A stretch of 64,000 nt of DNA from a bacterium (GCA_021791415.1 JAJYWQ010000064.1:4476-68475); one strand, 5' to 3'; counted from the first letter of the stretch, positions 12,226-54,948 are shown. Notes: generated from the letters alone by a model not told the origin. Made by a program: numbers and translations.

Positions 12226-13344
12226 TCAGCTCGGAAGTTGGCCCCGGACTCCCTGCATGGTCTCCGTCGCCAGCAGCTCCACCACCGCCGCCAGTGACCC
12301 CGTGCGACGGTAGGCGGCCAGCTGGCGGTCGGCACTGGTCCCCTCCCGGCAGATCTGGTGCAGGTACTCCACCTGGGCTCTGGACCCCAGCTCGTCCACA
12401 ACGTCGTCGACGAACTCCAGGAGCTCGACGGCCAGCTGGCGCATGGGCACCTCGGCGGCGCGGCCGAAGTCGATGAGCTGGCCGTCCAGCCCGTGGCGGA
12501 GAGCCCGCCACTTGTTCTCGGCGATGAGATTGGGCAGGTATTTGCGAAACCCCAGGTTCTGGCGGCGCAGCTTCACCAGCTTGGCGCAGATGGCCTGCAC
12601 CAACCCCGCCAGGCAGACCACCTCCTCGACCCGGGTGGCGGCGTCGCAGACCCGGAACTCCAGGGTGGGGTAGAGGACATGGGGGCGCAGGTCCCACCAG
12701 ATCTTCTTGCCGTTGTCGATGCAGCCGGTCCGGACCAGCAGCTCCAGGTAGTTCTCGAAGTCCTCCGGAGAGCTGAGCTCCGGCGGGATCCCGGTCCTCG
12801 GGAAGCGCGACCAGACCACGCTGCGGTAGCTCTTGAGACCGGTCTCCCGGCCCATCCAGAAGGGGCTTGAGGTGGAGATGGCGAGCAGGTGGGGGAGGAA
12901 GTAGCGGGCCTCGTTGGCCACCTCGATCCGCAGATCGGGGTCGGGGATGGCCACATGCACATGGAGCCCGAAGATCAGCAGTTCGCGGATCACGTCCTGC
13001 ATCTCCTCCTCCAGCACCTTGTAGCGCTCCAGGCGGGTGACCTCCTGCTCCTGCCAGCGGGAGAACGGGTGGGTGCCGGCCGAGACGATCCGCAGGCCGT
13101 GCGGCTCCAAGAGGTCGCTCACCGCTGACCGCAGCCGCACCACCTCGCGGTGGACCTCCAGGACGTCGGAGCAGATGGGGGTCGCCACCTCCACCACCGA
13201 CTGGAGCATCTCCGCCTTGACGTCGTCCCCGAGGCCGGGCCCGGCCTGCGCCAGGAGGGTCTCGATGTGGGATCGCAGGGCCCCCTCCCCATCCACGATC
13301 TGGAACTCCTCCTCCACCCCCAGGGTGAACCAGCGGGCGCTCAC
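12226..13344 (-). CDS. carboxylate-amine ligase, GCS2 family (YbdK / glutamate-cysteine ligase 2-like)
   Basis: Track ORF 12226..13596. Real start likely GTG at ~13344 (VSARWFTLGVEEEFQIVD, the canonical GCS2 N-terminus), preceded by a GAGGGGG SD. Its start overlaps the stop of the upstream gene (GTGA). Confidence 0.8.
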   Translation of the reverse strand: MSARWFTLGVEEEFQIVDGEGALRSHIETLLAQAGPGLGDDVKAEMLQSVVEVATPICSDVLEVHREVVRLRSAVSDLLEPHGLRIVSAGTHPFSRWQEQEVTRLERYKVLEEEMQDVIRELLIFGLHVHVAIPDPDLRIEVANEARYFLPHLLAISTSSPFWMGRETGLKSYRSVVWSRFPRTGIPPELSSPEDFENYLELLVRTGCIDNGKKIWWDLRPHVLYPTLEFRVCDAATRVEEVVCLAGLVQAICAKLVKLRRQNLGFRKYLPNLIAENKWRALRHGLDGQLIDFGRAAEVPMRQLAVELLEFVDDVVDELGSRAQVEYLHQICREGTSADRQLAAYRRTGSLAAVVELLATETMQGVRGQLPS

Positions 13345-14711
13345 ACGGCCCCCTCGACGACGAAGGCGGGGACCACGCTGCCCGCCCCCGCGGTGACGTT
13401 GAGGAGCGCGGACGAGGAGAGGCGGGTGAGGAGGCCGCCCACCCGCCCGTTGAAGAGGTAGGGGTCCATGTCCCGTCCCAGCTCCAGCTCCTGCACCGCA
13501 TCCCCCACCGCCACCGGGTAGCGGTCGCGAGGGACGGGAATCGCCTCCTGGACCACGTACGACTGGCTGAGCCCGACGGTGACGGCCTGCTCCCACTCGC
13601 GACGGCTAACCGTCCAGCCCAGGATGACCCCCTTGCCCCCGTACTCGTCGTTTGGCTTGAGTACCATCTCGCGCTGGTGGCTGGCCACGTGGTCGAGCAG
13701 GTCCGGCACCCGGCGCCCGTGCCGCTCGGTGGCCCCCTCCTGGAGTTTCCGGGTCCAGGGGACGTGGCGGGCGATGGCCTGCCGCTGCCGGGGGGTGTAG
13801 AGGTGCTGCCAGCGCGGGTCAGAGAGCAGGGCCAGGCTCATCTTCTTGTGCAGGAGCTTGGCCCTGAAGGAGTTGACCACGCAGACGGCGCCCTCCAGGT
13901 AGGCGGTGCAGAGCGGCTCGGCCGCCTCTCCCTCGGCCAGGAGCTCCGCCTCCAGGACTCGGCGGTAGACCAGGTTCACCACCTCACCCGAGGGACCGTG
14001 CAGCTCGCCTCTTGAAAACGCCAGCTCCGCCGGCTGGCAGATGATCGCCGGAACCCCCCGCCGGAGGAAGGCCTCGCGGAAGAGCTCGAACTCACCAAGG
14101 GTGGGCAGGCCGGCCCAGTCCACGATCGCCACCCGGGGCGGGGCCGTTCCCCCCCACGCCCGGTAGGCGGCCAGCATCACCTCCAGCTGGCGCTCGGCGC
14201 AGCGCAGGGGGCGGAGCCTGAACCGCTCCCGCAGGCGGAGCATGGCGGGCATCTCCCAGAAGACCCGGCTCAACTCGTCTCCGTAGGCCATGCCCGCCGG
14301 CGACTCGGCGTTGTACTCGACGTAGCCGATCTGCGGGGCGGCGAAGCTGTCCAGCCGTGAGCTGGGCGAGGAATGGGGATAGCCGGGATCCGCCAGCGCC
14401 AGCCGCTCCTCCTCGGGTCGGAGGTCCAGCTCTCCTCGGATCCCCTCGTCGGCGAGCAGCGCCGCCTCCAGCCGGGAGAGGGCCCCGAAGACCGCCTGGG
14501 CGGCCAGCTGGGCCGTCCGGTACTCGTCCCTGTTGATCAGCTCTGGGCGCAGCGAGACGCACAGGGGGTGCTGGCCGAAGTACAGCCCGCGCTCGAGCTG
14601 GCCCTCCCGCAGCCGCCCCAGGCTGTCCGCCAGGAGCTGGGGCTCCTCCAGCTGACGGTCGTACAGCTGCCGGGCGCGCCGAGCCGGGGTGGTGCTCAAA
14701 CGAAGCGCCAC
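13341..14711 (-). CDS. large ATP-grasp-like amidoligase (GspS-like / circularly-permuted ATP-grasp-like)
   Basis: 456 aa. ATP-grasp nucleotide-binding stretch MVLKPNDEYGGKGVILGW. Subfamily assignment is tentative. Confidence 0.55.
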   Translation of the reverse strand: MALRLSTTPARRARQLYDRQLEEPQLLADSLGRLREGQLERGLYFGQHPLCVSLRPELINRDEYRTAQLAAQAVFGALSRLEAALLADEGIRGELDLRPEEERLALADPGYPHSSPSSRLDSFAAPQIGYVEYNAESPAGMAYGDELSRVFWEMPAMLRLRERFRLRPLRCAERQLEVMLAAYRAWGGTAPPRVAIVDWAGLPTLGEFELFREAFLRRGVPAIICQPAELAFSRGELHGPSGEVVNLVYRRVLEAELLAEGEAAEPLCTAYLEGAVCVVNSFRAKLLHKKMSLALLSDPRWQHLYTPRQRQAIARHVPWTRKLQEGATERHGRRVPDLLDHVASHQREMVLKPNDEYGGKGVILGWTVSRREWEQAVTVGLSQSYVVQEAIPVPRDRYPVAVGDAVQELELGRDMDPYLFNGRVGGLLTRLSSSALLNVTAGAGSVVPAFVVEGAV

Positions 14712-30578: not shown

Positions 30579-31427
30579 TCAGCCAACCTCGGGGGCCGCT
30601 TCCTCCTCTTCCCCGAAGAGCAGGCGCCGGGAGTTGGTGTAGAGGATCTTGCGCTTCACCTCCTCCGGCAGTTCGATCTCCTGGAAGTCCCGCAGCCAGC
30701 GCTGGGCGGTCATCACCGGGGCGTCGGTGCCGAACAGCACCCGATCGGGGAATATCCCCTTGGCGTACTTCCAGACGGTTTCCGGGATGTACTTGGGCGA
30801 CCACCCGGAGAGCTCCAGGTAGCAGTTGCGCCGGATCCAAGTGACCGAGATCGCCTGGTTGACCCAGGGGAATCCGAAGTGGGCCAGGATCAGGCGGAGG
30901 TTGGGGAAGTCCAGGGCCACCTCGTCCAGGTGGGTGGGGTCCCCGTACTGCATCCGGCCACCTGACTGGTTGTGCCCGGTGTGGACCAGGACCGGGATTC
31001 CCAGCTCCTCGGCCTTGGCCCAGAGGGGATAGTGAGCACGGTCGTTGGGATAGAAGTGCTGGGTCGGGGGGTGGAGCTTGAGGCCGCGCATGCCCAGGTC
31101 CCGGACGGCGTGCTCCAGCTCCTCGATCGCCAGCTGATGCTTGTTGGGGTCGACGCTGGCGAAGCCCACGAAGCGGTCGGGGCGCTGGGCCACCAGGTCG
31201 GCAACCATCTCATTGGGGACCTTCCAGCCGTGGGTTGTCTCGCAGTCGAAGGCCAGGAGTGCGGCCAGCTCCACCCCGGCCTCGTCCATGGAGCGGACCA
31301 TGTCGTCCACGGTGATCGGCTTGCCGTCAAAGTTGAAGGTCTTACGGGCGTGGCCCCAGAACCACTCCGGGGTCACCGCCAGCACCTCCTCGGTGTACGG
31401 GTGCACGTGGATGTCAATCGATTTCAA
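30579..31427 (-). CDS. amidohydrolase-2 family protein
   Basis: 282 aa. MKSIDIHVHP N-terminus and conserved His/Asp positions of PF04909. Confidence 0.8.
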   Translation of the reverse strand: MKSIDIHVHPYTEEVLAVTPEWFWGHARKTFNFDGKPITVDDMVRSMDEAGVELAALLAFDCETTHGWKVPNEMVADLVAQRPDRFVGFASVDPNKHQLAIEELEHAVRDLGMRGLKLHPPTQHFYPNDRAHYPLWAKAEELGIPVLVHTGHNQSGGRMQYGDPTHLDEVALDFPNLRLILAHFGFPWVNQAISVTWIRRNCYLELSGWSPKYIPETVWKYAKGIFPDRVLFGTDAPVMTAQRWLRDFQEIELPEEVKRKILYTNSRRLLFGEEEEAAPEVG

Positions 31428-31471: not shown

Positions 31472-32236
31472 TCAGGTAGAGGCACTGTAGCCGCCGTCCA
31501 CCACCACCACCTCACCTGTCACGAACCGGGTGCCCTCGATCAGCGCCACCACCACCTCGGCCACGTCGTCTGCCGTCGCCACCCTGCGCATGGGGGTGTG
31601 GGCAGCTCGCCGCTGCATCAGCCGGTCGTAATCCTGCCCCAAGGTTTGCTCCATCCACTCCCCCAGCACCCATCCGGGAGCGACGGCGTTGACCCGGATC
31701 GCCGGCGCCAGCGCCCGAGCCAGGGTCCGGGTTAGATTGGCGACCGCGGCCTTGCTGGCGGCATACGGGAGGGGCTGGGCGCTGGGGCGCAGCCCGGCAA
31801 TGCTCGACATGTTGACCACCGCCGCCCGCTCCGACAGGCGCAGCATCGGCAGGACCGCCCGGGTCACCTGGAAGAGGCCGCGCACGTTGACGGCGAAGAC
31901 GCGGTCCCACTCCTCGAGCGCCACACCGTCCAGATCCTCCGGGGGAGCCTCGATGGTTACCCCGGCATTGTTGACCAGGGCGTCCAGCCTCCCGAACTCC
32001 CGCTCCACGGCCCCGGACATCGCGCGCACCTCCAGCTCCTGGCTGACGTCGGCGCGCACCACGAGGGCCCGGGCTCCCTGCTCGCGGACCAGCTCGGCCG
32101 CCTCCTGGGCAGGGCCCTCGGCTCGGCTGTAGTTGATGGCCACGTCGTACCCCAGACGGGCGAGGGCGACGGCGCTGGCCCGCCCCATCCCCCTGGAACC
32201 TCCGGTCACCAGCGCCGCCTTCCGGGTCCCGCTCAC
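31472..32236 (-). CDS. SDR-family oxidoreductase (FabG-like)
   Basis: Track ORF 31472..32335. Likely GTG start ~32236 (VSGTRKAALVTGGSRGMG, Rossmann TGxxxGxG) overlapping the upstream stop as GTGA. Catalytic YAASK. Confidence 0.8.
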   Translation of the reverse strand: MSGTRKAALVTGGSRGMGRASAVALARLGYDVAINYSRAEGPAQEAAELVREQGARALVVRADVSQELEVRAMSGAVEREFGRLDALVNNAGVTIEAPPEDLDGVALEEWDRVFAVNVRGLFQVTRAVLPMLRLSERAAVVNMSSIAGLRPSAQPLPYAASKAAVANLTRTLARALAPAIRVNAVAPGWVLGEWMEQTLGQDYDRLMQRRAAHTPMRRVATADDVAEVVVALIEGTRFVTGEVVVVDGGYSAST

Positions 32237-32787
32237 TGGCGGCCCTCCCCGGAGCCGAGGTCCAGCGACGCGCCGTTGAGGCTGACCTCGAGAGTGGTCG
32301 GCACCTCCACCTTGAACGTCTGGCTGGCATGGCACGCACGCTCGGCATGGCGGCAGAGCTCGGCCACCTGGGCCGGCGCTGCCGGGCTTTCCACCCGGAG
32401 CTGGAACGAGACCTGTTGAAAAGCCCCCGGCGGACCTCCCAGGTCGTACTTGTCGGCCAGGCTGAAGTTGGCCCGAACGTCCGCCTCCGCCGCCAGGATC
32501 TCCACTCCGTACAAGGGCGAAAACTTCGCCACCTGGGTGAGCATTCAGAACGCCGCTCCGGCCAGCAGGTACTGCAGGGGCCGGGGTGCTGAACCCGTCC
32601 CTCCCCCCTCCGGGGGCTCATCGGACTCCAGGGTGAAGGTGCCGACCCTCCCCACCATGTGCAGGTCCCGATCGATGTGCGCCACCGCTCGCTGGGTGAT
32701 CACGGGCCGAACCTCAGCTTCCTCCCTGGTTAGGCGGTAGGCGGCCCGCATCCGCTCCGGGTCGACGATGGGACGATCACTCATCGG
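32233..32787 (-). CDS. OsmC/Ohr-family peroxiredoxin-like protein with in-frame TGA at the peroxidatic-Cys position (Sec candidate or pseudogene)
   Basis: Track ORFs 32545..32838 and 32233..32544 are in the same frame, separated only by TGA at 32545-32547. The first ends ...GGGTGSAPRPLQYLLAGAAF. The second begins MLTQVAKF... and contains ACHASQTF. Alignment to E. coli OsmC (GTNPEELIGAAHAGC-FSMAL ... KAGCPVSQ) places the TGA exactly on the first catalytic Cys. Confidence 0.55.
32516..32530 (-). other. candidate bacterial SECIS-like hairpin downstream of the in-frame TGA
   Basis: mRNA UGA-AUGCUCACCCAGGU-GGCGAA-GUU(U)-UUCGCC: a perfect 6-bp stem beginning 15 nt after the UGA, with GU in the apical loop. 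Confidence 0.3.
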
Positions 32788-35080
32788 ATGCACCTCCGAG
32801 GTGGCGCCAGACCTTCTCCGGCGTGAATGGCGGGTCAACCAGCCCCGCCCCTATAGGGCTGAGGGCGTCGGCCACGGCGTTGGCGACGGCTGCCGGGATG
32901 GCGATGCATCCGCTCTCGGCCACCCCCTTGGTCCCCAAGGGGCTCAGGGGCGAGCGGGTGGGACGGAATTCCGTCACGATCTCCGTCCGGATGTCTGGCA
33001 GGGTGGGGACGGCGTAGCTCAGGAAGCTCTCGGTCAGCGCCTGGCCCTCGGGATCGTGGAGCACCTCTTCGAACAGCGCCGCCGCGAGCCCCTGGACGGT
33101 GGAGCCGATCACCTGGCCCTCGGCCAGGAGCGGGTTGACGACGATCCCGGCATCGTCAACCGCCACCAGCCGGTCCACCTCGACCCAACCGGTCTCCGGA
33201 TCCAGCTGCACGGTGGCGACGCAGGCCGAAGAGCCGAAGGCCAGGCCGGGAAGGGTGAACCGGCCGTCGCCCCGGAGTTCGGGAAGGTCGTCTGAGGTAT
33301 GGCCCCGCGCCGCGGCCTCCAGCTCCTCGAGGCCCACTCCCTCTCCCCCGGTGGACGGCACCACCCTGCCTCCCTTCCACTCCAGGCGCTCTTCCGGGAC
33401 GTCCAGGAGGTGAGCCGCCCAGATGAGGCAGCGGCGCCGGAGCTCCTCCAGGGCGAGGAGAACAGCCGAGCCGCCGACCGTCACCGAGCGACTGCCGAAG
33501 GTGCCGACGCCCAGTGGAACCTCGCGGGAGTCCCCGGAACGCACCTCGATGCGGCTGGGCTCCACCCCCATGGCGTCCGCGGCGATCTGGGCAAACGTGG
33601 TGGCGTGGCCCTGGCCGTGATCGCTCGAGCCGGGCAGGAGGACGATTCGACCGCCCTCACCCAGCACCGCCGCCGCGGTCTCCCAAGCGCTGTTCCCGCT
33701 GGACTCGACGGCCAGCGCCAGTCCCACTCCCCGCAACCTCCCTTGGGAGCGTTCCCGATCTCGCAGCTGGATCGCGGCGCCCCACGACGAGAGCTCCAGG
33801 GCGCGATCCAGGAGGCCGGGGTAGTCCCCGGAGTCGTACTCGGTGCCGAGAACTGTGCGGTAGGGGAAGTCGGAGGCCGCCACCAGGTTGCGGCGCCGGA
33901 TCTCCACCGGGTCCAGGTGCAGCCGGGCCGCGGCCAGGTCCACCAGCCGCTCGATGAAGTAGGCGGCCTCGGGACGCCCCGCACCCCGGTAGGGCCCTGT
34001 CGGGACCTTGTTGGTGGCCACTCCGACAACTGACACCTCTGCCGCAGGGATCCGGTAGGCGCCCGTGGCCAGGCTGGTGGCGGTCAGCGACACGACCGAG
34101 GTGTGCCCCAGGTGGTAGGCTCCGGCGTCCGCTAGGAGCTGGAGACGCAGCCCTCGGAAGGAGCCGTCCCCGCCCAGGCAGAGCTGGGCGTCCGCGTCCA
34201 TCCCCCGGCCCTGGTAGGCGGCCAGGAAGTTCTCCGAGCGGGTTTCCACCCACTTCACGGGGCGCCCGGAGCGGAGCGCCAGGAAGACCGCCACCAGATG
34301 CTCCGGTGCCAGCCCTCCCTTGCTCCCGAAAGCGCCCCCGACATCCGGGACCACCACCTGGACCCGCTCCTGCTCCCACCCCAGGAGCTGGGCCAGCTGC
34401 ACACGGGGACGGTGGGGATCCTGCGACGAGCACCAGAGGGTGAGCCGCGTGGCGTCCTCGGAGGCCACCGCCAGGCAGCCGCGCGGCTCCATCGGCGCCG
34501 CCTGCAGCCGGGGGATGGCGAAGCTTGCGGAGACCACCACCTCCGCGGCGGAGAAGGCGTCATCCACCGCACCGCCCGAGCGCTTCCAGCGGAAGAGGAC
34601 GTTGTCGGGGACCGTGGAGTGGACGGCGGGCCCACCGGAGAGTGCGGCCCTGATGCCCCCCACCGCCGGGAGAGCCTCCAGGTCCAACCCCACCAGGTCG
34701 CAGGCGTCCTCGGCCACGGCGCGGGAGTCAGCCAGGACCGCGGCCACCGGCTCGCCCTGGAAGCGCGCCTCCTCCCAGGCGAGCACCGGCATGGGAACCG
34801 GGGCCAGGACGAAGTCTGGTGGCAGCGGGATCGTGCTGAGGGGCAGGTGCCGCAGCGATTGCGGAAGGTCCGCAGCTGTGACCACGGCCTGGACCCCGGG
34901 GACGGCCAGAGCTCTAGCCGGATCCACTCCCCGGATCCGGCAATGCGGGAGCGGTGAGCGGACGAAGGCCACAAAGGCGCACCCCGCAGCGGGAAGATCG
35001 TCAAGGTAGGCACCGTGCCCGGTGATCAGCGGCTGATCCTCACGGCGTCGCTCTGGACGGCCGACCCAAGTTCCCGTCAA
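32777..35080 (-). CDS. molybdopterin-binding large subunit of xanthine dehydrogenase/aldehyde oxidase/CO-dehydrogenase family
   Basis: 767 aa, CoxL/XdhA-like throughout (GGAFGSK, PTGPYRGAGRPEA). No small Fe-S or FAD subunit genes adjacent. Confidence 0.85.
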   Translation of the reverse strand: MTGTWVGRPERRREDQPLITGHGAYLDDLPAAGCAFVAFVRSPLPHCRIRGVDPARALAVPGVQAVVTAADLPQSLRHLPLSTIPLPPDFVLAPVPMPVLAWEEARFQGEPVAAVLADSRAVAEDACDLVGLDLEALPAVGGIRAALSGGPAVHSTVPDNVLFRWKRSGGAVDDAFSAAEVVVSASFAIPRLQAAPMEPRGCLAVASEDATRLTLWCSSQDPHRPRVQLAQLLGWEQERVQVVVPDVGGAFGSKGGLAPEHLVAVFLALRSGRPVKWVETRSENFLAAYQGRGMDADAQLCLGGDGSFRGLRLQLLADAGAYHLGHTSVVSLTATSLATGAYRIPAAEVSVVGVATNKVPTGPYRGAGRPEAAYFIERLVDLAAARLHLDPVEIRRRNLVAASDFPYRTVLGTEYDSGDYPGLLDRALELSSWGAAIQLRDRERSQGRLRGVGLALAVESSGNSAWETAAAVLGEGGRIVLLPGSSDHGQGHATTFAQIAADAMGVEPSRIEVRSGDSREVPLGVGTFGSRSVTVGGSAVLLALEELRRRCLIWAAHLLDVPEERLEWKGGRVVPSTGGEGVGLEELEAAARGHTSDDLPELRGDGRFTLPGLAFGSSACVATVQLDPETGWVEVDRLVAVDDAGIVVNPLLAEGQVIGSTVQGLAAALFEEVLHDPEGQALTESFLSYAVPTLPDIRTEIVTEFRPTRSPLSPLGTKGVAESGCIAIPAAVANAVADALSPIGAGLVDPPFTPEKVWRHLGGASDE

Positions 35081-40994: not shown

Positions 40995-42104
40995 TTTACT
41001 AATCCGAGCGTTGGTAAGCCGACACGTTAGAGGATGTAGCGGAGGTCAGGGGCATAGAAGAAGCGGCGGATGGTGTCCGGGAGCTTCTGCAGTCGGCGCA
41101 GGGAACTGAGAACAAGGCTTTGGAACTGGGCGGGGTCCGTGACCACGTGACGACCAACTCGGTGGTTCTTCACATGCCGCCACACCCATCCGTCGGGGTT
41201 GAGTTCCGGGGAGTAGGGCGGCAGGTAGAACAGCCGGAGCTGGCCGTTGGTCTGCTCGATGAAGTCCTTGACCATGCGGGCCTTGTGGGTCGGGTGGTTG
41301 TCCACGATCAGGAACACGGGCCGATCTTGGTTGTGAATGAGCCGGCGCAAGAAGTCCAGAAAGACCGTGGCGGTCATCCGTTGCGGGGTCACCATGAAGC
41401 GGAGCTGCCCCTTGGCGGAGACCGCTGAGATCAGGTTCATCCCGAAGCGGCTGCCAGTGGTGCGGACGACCGGAGCCTCGCCTCGCGGTGCCCAGCTGGC
41501 ACCGCTGTGGTGGTCGGAGCGGATCCCGGCTTCATCTCCGAAGTAGATCACCGCTCCTTCCCGCTTGGCCAGCTTCTGGATGGCCGGGTACTCCTCCTCC
41601 CGCCACCTCTGCACCGCCGCCGGATCCTGCTGGTAGGCCCGGAACAGCGGTCGCTGGGGACTCAATCCCAAACGTCGCAACATCCTGCCCACCGCGGACT
41701 CACTGAGGCTGACCCCAAATTCGCGCCAGATCAACTCCTGAATCATCGCGCGCGTCCAGAGCGCAAATGGGAAGCGCAGCTGCAAGGGGTTCTTGCTGGT
41801 GATGGTGCGCACCAGCCGCTGCATCTCCTTGGGACCGAGCTTGCTGGGCCGTCCCGGCACCGGTTGGGCCTCCAAGGACGCCATTCCGCCCTTGCGAAAC
41901 CGGCCCAGCCATTCATAGATCACCGAGCGGTGGAAACCAAGAGCCTTGATGACCAGCTCCGGGCTCTCCCCATCCCAGACCACTCGCTCTACCGCACGCT
42001 GACGAATCTCCGCCAGGGTGGCATGGGAAAGTGCCCGCCCATCGCGACTCCGGTCCATCCCCCAAGTCTACCAAAGGTCGCCTTACTTACGCTCGCCTTA
42101 GTAG
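40995..42104 (-). mobile_element. IS630-family insertion sequence (boundaries approximate)
   Basis: Single DDE transposase flanked by imperfect terminal inverted repeats. Left TACTAATCCGAGCGTTGGTAAGCCGAC (~40996-41022). Reverse complement of the right end TACTAAGGCGAGCGTAAGTAAGGCGAC (~42079-42104). The ends abut TA. Confidence 0.65.
41027..42058 (-). CDS. IS630-family transposase (HTH + DDE_3)
   Basis: 343 aa. N-terminal HTH, DDE region with IVDNHPTHK and a YLPPYSPELNPDGWVW tail typical of IS630/Tc1-mariner. Confidence 0.9.
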   Translation of the reverse strand: MDRSRDGRALSHATLAEIRQRAVERVVWDGESPELVIKALGFHRSVIYEWLGRFRKGGMASLEAQPVPGRPSKLGPKEMQRLVRTITSKNPLQLRFPFALWTRAMIQELIWREFGVSLSESAVGRMLRRLGLSPQRPLFRAYQQDPAAVQRWREEEYPAIQKLAKREGAVIYFGDEAGIRSDHHSGASWAPRGEAPVVRTTGSRFGMNLISAVSAKGQLRFMVTPQRMTATVFLDFLRRLIHNQDRPVFLIVDNHPTHKARMVKDFIEQTNGQLRLFYLPPYSPELNPDGWVWRHVKNHRVGRHVVTDPAQFQSLVLSSLRRLQKLPDTIRRFFYAPDLRYIL

Positions 42105-52157: not shown

Positions 52158-52958
52158 CTACTCCGGCCACCCCTTGGGAAGGTGCTGCAGCGGGCCATGC
52201 CCCCCGCCGAGCTTCGGAGCCTGCTCCAGGGCCGCCTGGAGGTAGCGCTTGGCCTCGGCCGCGGCCTCGGGCACCGAGCGCCCTCGGGCCAGATGGGCCG
52301 TCAAGGCGGCGGAGAAGGTGCAGCCGGTGCCGTGGGTGTGCGGCCCGAGAACGCGCGTCCCTCGCAGCAGCACCACCTGCTCCCGGCCGATGAGAAGGTC
52401 GTTCGGCTCGTCGGGGGAATGTCCGCCCTTGACCAGCACCCAGCGCGGTCCCATCTCCAGCAGCCGGCGGCCGGCGGCCAGCGCTGTTCTCTCATCCACG
52501 ATCTCCATCTCGGCGAGGGTGGCCGCCTCGGGCCAGTTGGGGGTCAGCACCTCAGCAAGCGGGAGAAGGCGGTCGCGCAGGGTGTCCACCGCCTCCGCCC
52601 GGAGGAGGCGATCCCCGCCCTTGGCCACCATCACCGGGTCCACGACCAGGGGACCCCAGCCGCGTTGTGAGATCTGCTCCGCCACGACCTCGATCAGCTC
52701 AGCGGACAGCAGCATCCCCGTCTTCACGGCCACCGGGCGGAGGTCCCGATCCAGGGCTGCGAGCTGGGCCACGACGAAGTCCGCGGGGACGGCATGGACC
52801 GCTTCCACGCCCAATGTGTTCTGGGCGGTGAGCGCCACCAGGACGCTCACCCCGTACACCCCGGCCGCGGCGAAGCTCTTGAGGTCGGCCTGGATGCCCG
52901 CGCCCCCGCCGCTGTCGCTGCCCGCCACCGTGGCCGCAATCGGCATGGGCGGCGTCAT
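52158..52958 (-). CDS. thiD: hydroxymethylpyrimidine/phosphomethylpyrimidine kinase
   Basis: Track ORF 52158..53114. Start [27 protein letters not shown] (ThiD N-terminus), ATGA overlap with the upstream stop. GTGC motif. Confidence 0.85.
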
Positions 52959-54409
52959 GGGCGCCCCCGGGCGGGAGCCAGCGCCCGGGCCCGCGGGTCT
53001 CGCTCCCGCAACAGAAGGTAGACGGCAGCGGCCACCGCCATCCCCACCAGCCCGCTGATGTCGGCCGGCTGGCCCGCGAATAGGTGAGCCGCGAGGGGGG
53101 ACACGAAGCCCCACTCCCCCGGGGGAGGGGGCTCGTTGTAGAAGAGGATGGTGGCGAGAGTCCCGGCGAGGAACGGCGCCATGGCCCGCCAGCGAACCCC
53201 ACCGTGATACCAGTAGCCGCGTGGCCTCACGAGATCGGCGGGCACCACCTTCGCGCCACGGAATCTCTGGTCGAGGATCACCACCACCGCCCAGGCCGGG
53301 AACCAGACGTAGGTGAGGGTGAGGAAGTTGACGTAATTGCCCTGGAAGCCACTCCCGGCGAACAGGACCAGGGCGGCGATGGCCCCGCCCACCAGGCCCA
53401 TCGCCAGCGCCGCGGCCCAGCGGGCGATGCGCAATCCGATGGCGAGGGCACAGAGAGCGGCGGAGTAGACGTCAAGGTAGTTGGAGCTCAGCTCGGCGAC
53501 GAGGATGAAGGCGGCGAAGCAGTAGGCGAATGGCAGCGGCACCAGCCTGACGATCAGGTTCGGAAGGAGCACTCCCGGGGCGGCCGTCTGGATCGCCGCC
53601 CCCAACAGCCCGCAGAGCACCAGGGTGACGGCCGTGCCCCCACCAGCCGCCCAGGCCACGCGGGCGCCGCTGGAGCGCTGGGGCAGGTAGCGCGAGTAGT
53701 CCCCGGCGTAGGTCACCCAGGACACCACCAGGGCGAAGGTCAGGGTGAATCCCAGCGCCATGGCGGCGAGGTGGGGGCCGGTAGCCAGCCGACTCTGCAG
53801 GGTGAGGTTCCAGTGCTGCACGGTGAGCGCGGCCAGCGCCACACAGACCACCAGAAAGGCAGGCGCCTGGAGGTGCTGGAACAGCGAGAGGGTGCGATGG
53901 CCGTAGACGGCCACCAGCACCGAGACGCCCACCATGCCCAGCAGCAGAAGCCCCCCGACCACCTCCGGGGTGGAGCTGAAGATGGGCAGCGCCCGGACGG
54001 TGGTCACCGCCACGGCGCAGTCATAGGCAAACCAGCCCACCCCGATGGTCATGGTCAGGAAGCCGCCGACCACCGCTCCCCGGCGGCCGAACACCGCCCT
54101 GGAGTGGACGATCTGCGGAGCGCCGCTGCGCACCCCGGTCACCGAGAGCAGCCCCAGGAGGGCACCCCCGGCGGCCGCCCCGGCCAGCAGGGCGAGGCTC
54201 GCATCCCAGAAGCCCAACCCGGCCGCTGAGATCAGGAGCGCCCCCGCGTACAGGGAGAAGAAGTCCGCCAGGGCACCCGCCCAGATGAAGGTGAGCTCAC
54301 GGGGTCGACCTCGCCGGCGGTCGGCCGGCACCGGTTCCAGCCCCCGCAGTTCGACCTGGAAGACCTCGTCCTTGGGATCCACGGCCAGCTGCTCGATCTT
54401 CATGCTCAT
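52955..54409 (-). CDS. NCS1-family permease (cytosine/purine/HMP, CytX-like)
   Basis: Track ORF 52955..54442. Start ATG ~54409 ([10 protein letters not shown]...). 12-TM NCS1-like. Preceded by a TPP riboswitch and followed by thiD. Confidence 0.8.
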
Positions 54410-54447
54410 CGCCCCATCCTGTGTGGCACACCTACCGACCATCTCGG

Positions 54448-54548
54448 GGTGGACAGGGCGTGGCTTCCCGACGCTGGTACTAACCAGATCCGGTGTTCAG
54501 GGTTGGCGGGTTGCCTCTCAGCGCCCTGTCGGCGCACCCCTAGCTGGA
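54448..54548 (-). ncRNA. TPP (THI-box) riboswitch
   Basis: Minus-strand RNA contains GGGGUGCGCC...CAGGGCG-CUGAGA-GGCAACCC...CUGAACACCGGAUCUGGUUAGUACCAGCGUCGGGAAGCCA-CGCCCUG. This gives the THI-box, P1 stem CAGGGCG/CGCCCUG, and pyrimidine-sensing CUGAGA. Confidence 0.8.
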
Positions 54549-54948
54549 AGCCGAGCTTCCAGGGGCAGTATAGGCCTCTCCCCGCCCCGGGGCGGCGCCC
54601 GGCGCGACCCTCGGCTCATCCGCCCGATGGTGGACCTGAGCCCGGGGCAGGGGCCCCGACGGCGGGAGTGGGGCGCTCTCCTGGACGATCCGGGCCAGGC
54701 TGCTGGGTGCCGTCCAGCGCGCTGGGCGGCGCAGGCCAGGCACCCGAGGCGAGCCGCCGAAGGCCGCAAACGACCGGAGCGCCTGCCGGCAGCGCACTCG
54801 AGCCATATGCCCGATCCAAGTTTGGATTCCGGCACCTCCTGTCTCTGAGCTTCGACACCACGAGCACCCTCGCCGGAGTGAGCCGACACGGTAGGTTCAA
54901 ACTCGCGCAGGGGAGGCTGCCCGCCTCCGGGCACCCGGGAGTTGCGGC

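Follow-up and report, generated by a model that had tools for sequence, protein, structure and literature searches.

The window analyzed here is a stretch of bacterial DNA of 64,000 nucleotides (GCA_021791415.1 JAJYWQ010000064.1:4476-68475), and the subject of this report is an OsmC-like gene that it carries on the minus strand. Two open reading frames (ORFs), 32838..32545 and 32544..32233, lie there in the same frame and are separated by a single TGA codon (32547..32545), which is followed directly by ATG. The initial annotation described this arrangement, which our reading of the sequence bears out, and took the two ORFs for one gene of an OsmC/Ohr-like protein whose catalytic cysteine codon is replaced by the TGA: a selenoprotein candidate or, alternatively, a precise pseudogene. 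The selenoprotein proposal is now supported by the position of the UGA at the active-site cysteine, by the existence of homologs with either cysteine or selenocysteine (Sec, U) at this site, by the conservation of both the UGA and a hairpin that follows it, and by the curation of the family. As judged from sequence comparisons, positions 32784..32233 (-) would constitute one intact and genuine selenoprotein gene that encodes 183 residues with an OsmC fold, a reading to which we assign a probability of about 0.9.

The complete gene (32233..32784 (-)) comprises 183 codons and a TGA stop, and its frame is continuous except for the one internal TGA. The end of the gene at 32233 is the one originally given, whereas the start had been placed too far upstream, at 32838. 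The true start is most likely ATG 32784 rather than TTG 32838, because a Shine-Dalgarno sequence, GGAGG, can be read 8 nt 5' of this ATG (32793..32797 (-)), because the molybdenum hydroxylase gene upstream ends in a TGA that overlaps the ATG (ATGAGTGA), and because a 79-amino-acid (aa) N-terminal ORF beginning at this codon was called in four independent assemblies (L001-L004). At its other end, the terminal TGA of the gene overlaps the GTG start of a downstream gene for a short-chain dehydrogenase/reductase (SDR) in the sequence GTGA. The layout of the predicted selenoprotein is M1...F79-U80-M-L-T83...C151...Q183. Its in-frame UGA, codon 80 (32545..32547 (-)), is the predicted selenocysteine and the first residue of a UxxT motif (U-M-L-T), and Cys151 (TGC, 32332..32334 (-)), which is invariant in our alignments and lies in the invariant motif HAERACHA, is the predicted resolving cysteine. 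The gene is mis-annotated wherever we have seen it: NCBI, ENA, and JGI list fragments of 79 aa and 103 aa, three JGI records contain a spurious tryptophan, and a selenoprotein annotation is absent from all public records examined.

Joined, with cysteine written for the stop, the two ORFs yield a product that matches the Pfam OsmC model from end to end (positions 1-100 of 100, E = 1.2e-12), as expected for the full OsmC-family protein that had been proposed. Taken alone, the N-terminal fragment has no Pfam match and the C-terminal fragment stays below the gathering score. Searches with phmmer against solved structures aligned the TGA with the cysteine of AGLTGCVMTQ in an OsmC-like protein (PDB 3cje) and with Cys60 (AGYSACFIG) of Pseudomonas aeruginosa Ohr (PDB 1n2f); C151 aligned with the second cysteine of the latter, Cys124. 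Ohr and OsmC resemble the product only weakly in sequence: 1n2f was matched at E = 5.7e-4, and phmmer did not recover E. coli OsmC among PDB sequences at E <= 1. These alignments confirm that a second conserved cysteine is present and that the stop takes the place of the active-site cysteine, the "peroxidatic" part of the original description being a label by homology.

As a stand-in for the window protein, we used an AlphaFold model of a cysteine-containing homolog, P0010 (mean pLDDT 76.8). The top 47 PDB matches of this model in Foldseek were all OsmC or Ohr structures. In the model, the active-site residue lies on a long helix (residues 74-93), and the second cysteine sits where helices 142-155 and 157-161 meet. 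An invariant arginine is present (R104, R149) and might correspond to the catalytic arginine of Ohr/OsmC. Models of the Ohr subfamily score far below their cut-offs (TIGR03561, 19 versus 88.85). Ten residues before the active site, where E. coli OsmC presumably has P-E-E, the selenoprotein subfamily has P-L-Q, with a glutamine that is 97% conserved at what we take to be the position of the OsmC active-site glutamate; the catalytic glutamate of OsmC seems to be absent from this subfamily. Because of this replacement we only infer, by analogy, that the subfamily has peroxidase activity.

The closest curated family is NCBIfam NF041052, "OsmC-related (seleno)protein," which the product matches with 136.9 bits (E = 4.5e-40; cut-off, 95) over model positions 2-144 of 144 when cysteine is written for UGA. 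All 25 full-length homologs match it as well. An OsmC-like selenoprotein family of the COG1765/YhfA type, with the motif UxxT, was identified in the Sargasso Sea metagenome (Zhang, Fomenko and Gladyshev 2005, PMC1088965), and it is still listed in reviews of 2022 and 2026. Since NCBI curates the family and the 2005 survey lists an OsmC-like selenoprotein, the statement in the initial annotation that such proteins had been catalogued was right. The motif in the window, U-M-L-T, equals the published UxxT, and other loci have U-L-L-T; the threonine, T83, is invariant in one alignment (A2) and 100% conserved in a set of 68 sequences. On this evidence the gene is, by prediction, a new member, so far without annotation as such, of a selenoprotein family that has been catalogued before.

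A scan of one genome per species produced 79 homologous loci, labeled mostly as Candidatus Dormibacterota, Ktedonobacterales/Chloroflexota, and Actinomycetes metagenome-assembled genomes (MAGs), with a few Bacillota; some of them are probably mis-binned contigs. The codon at the site is TGA in 76 of the 79 loci and TGC in two (L028 and L030), and the region has been lost in one (L076). Loci that carry TGA share 45-93% protein identity and bear several phylum labels. Upstream of the TGA, 77 of 78 loci keep an open frame of at least 78 codons. Downstream, where the contig does not end early, the frame nearly always extends for about 95-106 codons, the exceptions being L080-L082, which have premature stops, and L065, which is open to 184 codons. 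The residues 5' of the UGA (G, G, P, L, Q) are conserved at or near 100% despite variation of 1.4-1.8 bits at the third positions of their codons. This pattern shows that the same frame is translated in the N-terminal half, which is under purifying selection. The loci are not copies of one contaminant, because most synonymous sites differ between them.

Protein searches revealed the same split elsewhere, in the form of many proteins of 100-103 aa, 63-95% identical, that start at or beside the residue after the stop. Homologs of 184 aa carry cysteine at the site (AGAAFCLITQ); five of them were aligned together with three JGI proteins that have tryptophan there. Cysteine and selenocysteine forms are thus paired within the family, TGC or TGT having been found in two genomic and four metagenomic loci. 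One MAG (JBAUTF01) contains two selenocysteine paralogs, with the TGA at 661-663 of L013 and 10247-10249 of L043, one from each of the two hairpin clades described below (AKFSP and ARFAP). In the locus that lost the site, L076 (protein P0043), the Sec region is missing because of an internal deletion; together with L080-L082, this locus may represent a real pseudogene or an assembly frameshift. Five contigs (L022, L008, L042, L031, and L056) that carry genes 48-78% identical to the window protein, as the Dormibacterota and Chloroflexota loci do, are labeled Micrarchaeia archaeon, Nanopelagicaceae, Myxococcaceae, and Eisenbacteria; these are probably mis-binned or mislabeled MAG contigs.

This distribution bears on the proposal that the gene is a pseudogene or carries a nonsense polymorphism, the TGA being a recent inactivating mutation of a cysteine codon. 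A single stop at a codon of the TGC/TGT type, one mutation away from cysteine, would fit such an event, as would the two fragments annotated by the gene callers of NCBI, ENA, and JGI alike. Against it, the TGA is retained in nearly all species across several phylum labels and a wide range of divergence, both halves of the gene vary in the manner of coding sequence under purifying selection, and cysteine occupies the site in only two loci. Furthermore, the gene overlaps both of its neighbors in an operon whose gene order recurs in about 12-14 related loci, where a dead gene would be unexpected, as the initial annotation had argued. The conservation of the TGA, the open frames, and the pattern of purifying selection leave the pseudogene alternative practically excluded.

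Is the TGA real, and does it mean stop in this organism? Independent ENA, NCBI (GCA_021836205.1), and JGI assemblies share, on 17 contigs in all, an identical 103-aa ORF and hence the TGA that precedes it. The three JGI homologs translated with tryptophan at the site (P0001-P0003) could be taken to indicate either an error of sequencing or assembly or a genome-wide reassignment of TGA (genetic code 4 or 25). However, the DNA of the locus that encodes P0001 reads TGA (L088, 626-628), so the tryptophan is an artifact of a translation table in which TGA specifies this residue. TGA also serves as the ordinary stop codon of the selenoprotein gene itself, of its upstream neighbor, and of 45 homologous genes, from which it follows that the genetic code has not been reassigned. 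With the same TGA recovered in independently assembled contigs and in 76 other genomes, we give error or reassignment almost no weight.

Downstream of the UGA, the transcript contains the perfect 6-bp stem that had been noted about 15 nt after this codon. Its 15-nt core (32516..32530 (-)) pairs GGCGAA with UUCGCC around an apical loop GUU; counted from the UGA, the stem begins at the 15th nucleotide and the start of the loop is 20 nt away. Folding of the single sequence suggests a possible extension by a lower stem, CAGG-U(bulge)...CUUG (32512..32535 (-)), which is weak and optional. A conserved lower stem was largely rejected as a part of the element: pairs 28-51 and 31-48 of the alignment used (A3) are broken in most sequences, and the lower stem is only partly conserved. 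Even the perfect stem does not exceed chance when viewed in one sequence, as about 5% of the TGA triplets in this window, which has a G+C content of 70%, precede an equivalent perfect 6-bp hairpin, and the 66-nt fold is no more stable than its shuffled versions (z = 0.39). It is because of the comparative data, not the strength of the single-sequence signal, that we consider this hairpin significant.

In an alignment of 76 distinct sequences, the only structure predicted by RNAalifold is this very 6-bp stem. The cells of this stem can pair in 99.3% of cases, a value that falls to 30-66% once the 3' partners are slid by one to three columns. The sequences form two clades, one with GGCGAA-GUU-UUCGCC and the peptide A-K-F-S-P (25 sequences, including the window) and the other with GGCGCG-GUU-CGCGCC and the peptide A-R-F-A-P (51 sequences), and between them two pairs show compensatory changes, from A-U to C-G and from A-U to G-C. 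As read from the alignment, the replacements of K by R and of S by A are the two halves of these compensatory base-pair changes. The loop is GUU in all 76 sequences of the Sec form. In the six loci of the Cys form that we read (five distinct sequences), which serve as a natural control, the loop G has in every case become C or T, and several of these loci also break the stem.

Synonymous sites tell the same story more directly. At the fourfold degenerate sites of codons +5, +6, +7, and +9, variability is 0.00 bits, with G in 62/62, 68/68, 44/44, and 68/68 sequences, respectively. Other well-sampled fourfold sites on both sides of the UGA mostly reach 1.1-2.0 bits; the spacer codons +1 to +3 are lower (0.73-1.33 bits), and codon +10, just outside the stem, shows 1.99 bits. 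The hairpin is conserved at the level of RNA, and for selection acting at that level the constraint on synonymous sites is stronger evidence than the compensatory pairs.

The same comparisons speak to the possibility of a split gene, in which translation would stop at the TGA and restart at the adjacent ATG by TGAATG coupling, the two halves then assembling into an OsmC fold without the first cysteine. In the window and its closest relatives an ATG does follow the TGA, and no annotation pipeline misses the 103-aa ORF. However, in 59 of the 68 Sec-form sequences the next codon is a leucine CTN codon (mostly CTG) instead of ATG. There is no conserved Shine-Dalgarno sequence either: the GGAG in the window stems from a glycine codon whose third base is free to vary (1.74 bits). 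A split gene would also leave unexplained why the break always falls at the catalytic cysteine codon, why TAA or TAG never takes the place of TGA there, and why a hairpin with G in its loop is kept at the distance of a selenocysteine insertion sequence (SECIS) element and decays in the cysteine forms. We regard a split gene as highly unlikely.

By its shape and position, the hairpin resembles a bacterial SECIS element, as the initial annotation had held. The published bacterial SECIS model (PMC13188914) calls for an apical loop of 3-9 nt, an upper stem of 4-16 bp, a distance of 16-37 nt from the UGA to the loop, a G within the first two nucleotides of the loop, with G or U as the usual next base, and a free energy of -7.5 kcal/mol or lower. 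Here, the loop has 3 nt and begins with G-U, the upper stem has 6 bp, and the UGA is 20 nt from the loop. The energy is borderline: -6.5 kcal/mol for the core in the clade of the window, -9.5 in the other clade, and -10.8 when the non-conserved lower stem is included.

Several observations weigh against reading the UGA as selenocysteine. The 15-nt core of the window is weaker than the energy limit of the model and passes it only with the help of the poorly conserved lower stem. No Rfam family matches the hairpin, and a permissive scan around the site gave chance matches only. The compensatory changes may reflect as few as one evolutionary event per pair, because they separate just two clades; a residual stem persists in some cysteine forms; and part of the stem is dictated by the A-(K/R)-F-(S/A)-P peptide written in G+C-rich codons. 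Finally, the window and related loci totaling 1.3 Mb showed neither a tRNA-Sec nor selA, selB, or selD, but this is too small a fraction of any genome for the result to mean absence. Specifically, ARAGORN reported no tRNA-Sec in the window or in 83 loci, and tblastn of the window and all loci with selA, selB, and selD queries (E. coli sequences) gave only one weak match to a GTPase, in L066, a result that is uninformative for the whole genome. Pfam searches of 30 further genes of the window identified no selenium gene. Beyond these points, the window contains another 19 TGA-split pairs of same-frame ORFs with high G+C at third codon positions (GC3) on both sides; those inspected were neighboring genes or antisense shadow ORFs, and no other selenoprotein gene emerged from them. 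Literature searches linking Dormibacter* to selenocysteine or Ktedonobacter to selenoproteins returned nothing relevant.

The failure to find the Sec machinery in the window and the related loci is also what favors recoding without selenium, whereby the UGA would be read as cysteine with the help of a SelB-like factor and a tRNA-Sec-like tRNA, or as tryptophan or cysteine through near-cognate read-through. Recoding of UGA to cysteine by tRNA-Sec-like tRNAs has been proposed in some uncultured bacteria, and these proposals lend the idea some plausibility. On the other hand, both NCBI's curation and the literature treat the family as one of selenoproteins, the G-U of the hairpin loop is typical of SECIS elements that bind SelB, and a lineage that needed only cysteine could simply use TGC, as two loci and many metagenomic homologs do, instead of keeping a costly signal in 96% of species. 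Recoding without selenium is thus unlikely in our view, and we see a similarly slim chance that the UGA and the hairpin are read non-canonically, for instance by a SelB-like factor with a tRNA-Sec-like tRNA that brings cysteine, or by some other variant of the machinery, with selA and selD missing from the genomes concerned.

If UGA codon 80 specifies selenocysteine and not termination, the following course of events can be proposed. The 15-nt hairpin in the coding sequence, 14 nt past the UGA, would act as a bacterial SECIS element and would recruit SelB-GTP with Sec-tRNA(Sec) while the UGA sits in the ribosomal A site. By analogy with Ohr and OsmC, Sec80 in the U-x-x-T motif on the long central helix would then be oxidized by a hydroperoxide or another oxidant, and the oxidized residue would form a selenenylsulfide with the invariant Cys151, to be re-reduced by a thiol partner. 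The insertion of Sec, its dependence on SelB, the substrate, and the redox partner are what we infer from the conservation of the UGA and the hairpin and from the family. One hint as to the partner comes from two cysteine-form homologs, L084 (303-593) and L086 (439-909), which adjoin a glutaredoxin gene; glutaredoxin is a possible reductant or thiol partner of the OsmC-like subfamily.

The genes around the selenoprotein gene are arranged on the same strand. Upstream lies the gene for the large subunit of a molybdenum hydroxylase of the xanthine dehydrogenase/CoxL type (32777..34927 (-); Pfam Ald_Xan_dh_C, MoCoBD_1, and MoCoBD_2), and downstream lies the SDR gene (31472..32236 (-); Pfam adh_short); for both, the domains were assigned on the identical genes of L001-L003. 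The next gene of the same-strand cluster encodes a hydrolase of the Amidohydro_2 family (30579..31427 (-)). Within the clade of the window, the molybdenum hydroxylase gene is kept upstream in 14 loci, the SDR gene downstream in 14, and the amidohydrolase gene downstream in 12, so that the order molybdenum hydroxylase, OsmC-like selenoprotein, SDR, amidohydrolase is preserved in 12-14 loci. Because the order is kept in this way, a role tied to this oxidative cluster suggests itself: the selenoprotein gene would be co-transcribed with the molybdenum hydroxylase and SDR genes, and its product probably serves the oxidative catabolic cluster, an argument from gene order that is a weak one. In the second clade (ARFAP), the neighbors are heterogeneous and offer no functional clue.

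Elsewhere in the window, a scan with Rfam at gathering thresholds recovered only a tRNA-Gly and a TPP riboswitch. The riboswitch (54449-54551 (-)) precedes genes for a permease of the cytosine/purine/thiamine type (52955-54442 (-)) and a phosphomethylpyrimidine kinase (52158-53114 (-)), an ordinary arrangement for thiamine salvage. A transposase of the IS630 type (41027-42058 (-); HTH_32, HTH_33, and DDE_3) belongs to an element that is also found at 487-1518 in the near-identical contigs L001, L003, and L004; a fourth contig, L002, lacks it and has TetR and ABC-transporter genes instead, which is strain-level variation. Finally, positions 12226-14711 (-) hold two overlapping ORFs of 456 aa, one for a protein of glutamate-cysteine ligase family 2 and the other with a weak match to a circularly permuted ATP-grasp domain; their overlap is probably a start-codon artifact of our crude gene calling, which was based on GC3.

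What follows from the selenoprotein reading is, in the first place, a correction of the annotation: once the two fragments are joined, the conserved operon regains a redox enzyme. If the reading is true, this organism and many MAGs of Dormibacterota, Ktedonobacterales, and Actinomycetes must carry the machinery for selenocysteine. Dormibacterota and Ktedonobacterales are mostly aerobic soil lineages. That Sec decoding is widespread in these two groups is more likely than a non-canonical reading of the UGA, and the gene would then be a near-universal marker there in its Sec form, while its SECIS core, 15 nt long and capped by a GUU triloop, would rank among the smallest known. The locus also serves as a worked example of an RNA signal and a peptide motif that evolve together. 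With a family and a mechanism that are already textbook knowledge, the locus opens no new biological question. The value lies in the annotation fix, in an implied and unreported Sec trait of lineages known mainly from soil-type MAGs, and in a very small SECIS element that co-evolves with the peptide it encodes.

Compared with the E. coli fdhF-type SECIS element and the bSECISearch consensus, the hairpin likewise lies in the coding region directly after the UGA and likewise has a small loop with G-U and a G+C-rich stem, whereas it is much smaller than the fdhF-type element (a 15-nt core with a 3-nt loop) and lacks a conserved bulged U or lower stem. With the Ohr/OsmC proteins (P. aeruginosa Ohr, 1n2f; E. 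coli OsmC, 1qwi), the product shares the fold. Sec80 matches the peroxidatic Cys60 of Ohr, Cys151 matches its resolving Cys124, and by analogy the chemistry is likely of the same kind, with the first residue oxidized and then bonded to the second. Unlike these proteins, the selenoprotein has an N-terminal extension of about 30-60 residues, is predicted to use selenium in place of sulfur, and seemingly lacks the catalytic glutamate. The closest parallel is the OsmC-like selenoproteins of Zhang et al. (2005), which have in common with ours the OsmC fold, Sec at the first active-site cysteine within UxxT, a SECIS hairpin that follows at once and carries G in its small apical loop, and the existence of cysteine-containing homologs. 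The published examples come from a marine metagenome, whereas the present loci belong to MAGs labeled Dormibacterota, Ktedonobacterales/Chloroflexota, and Actinomycetes, and the two sets are compared here by these features rather than by direct alignment of their sequences. In the loci reported here, the Sec form outnumbers the Cys form 76 to 2.

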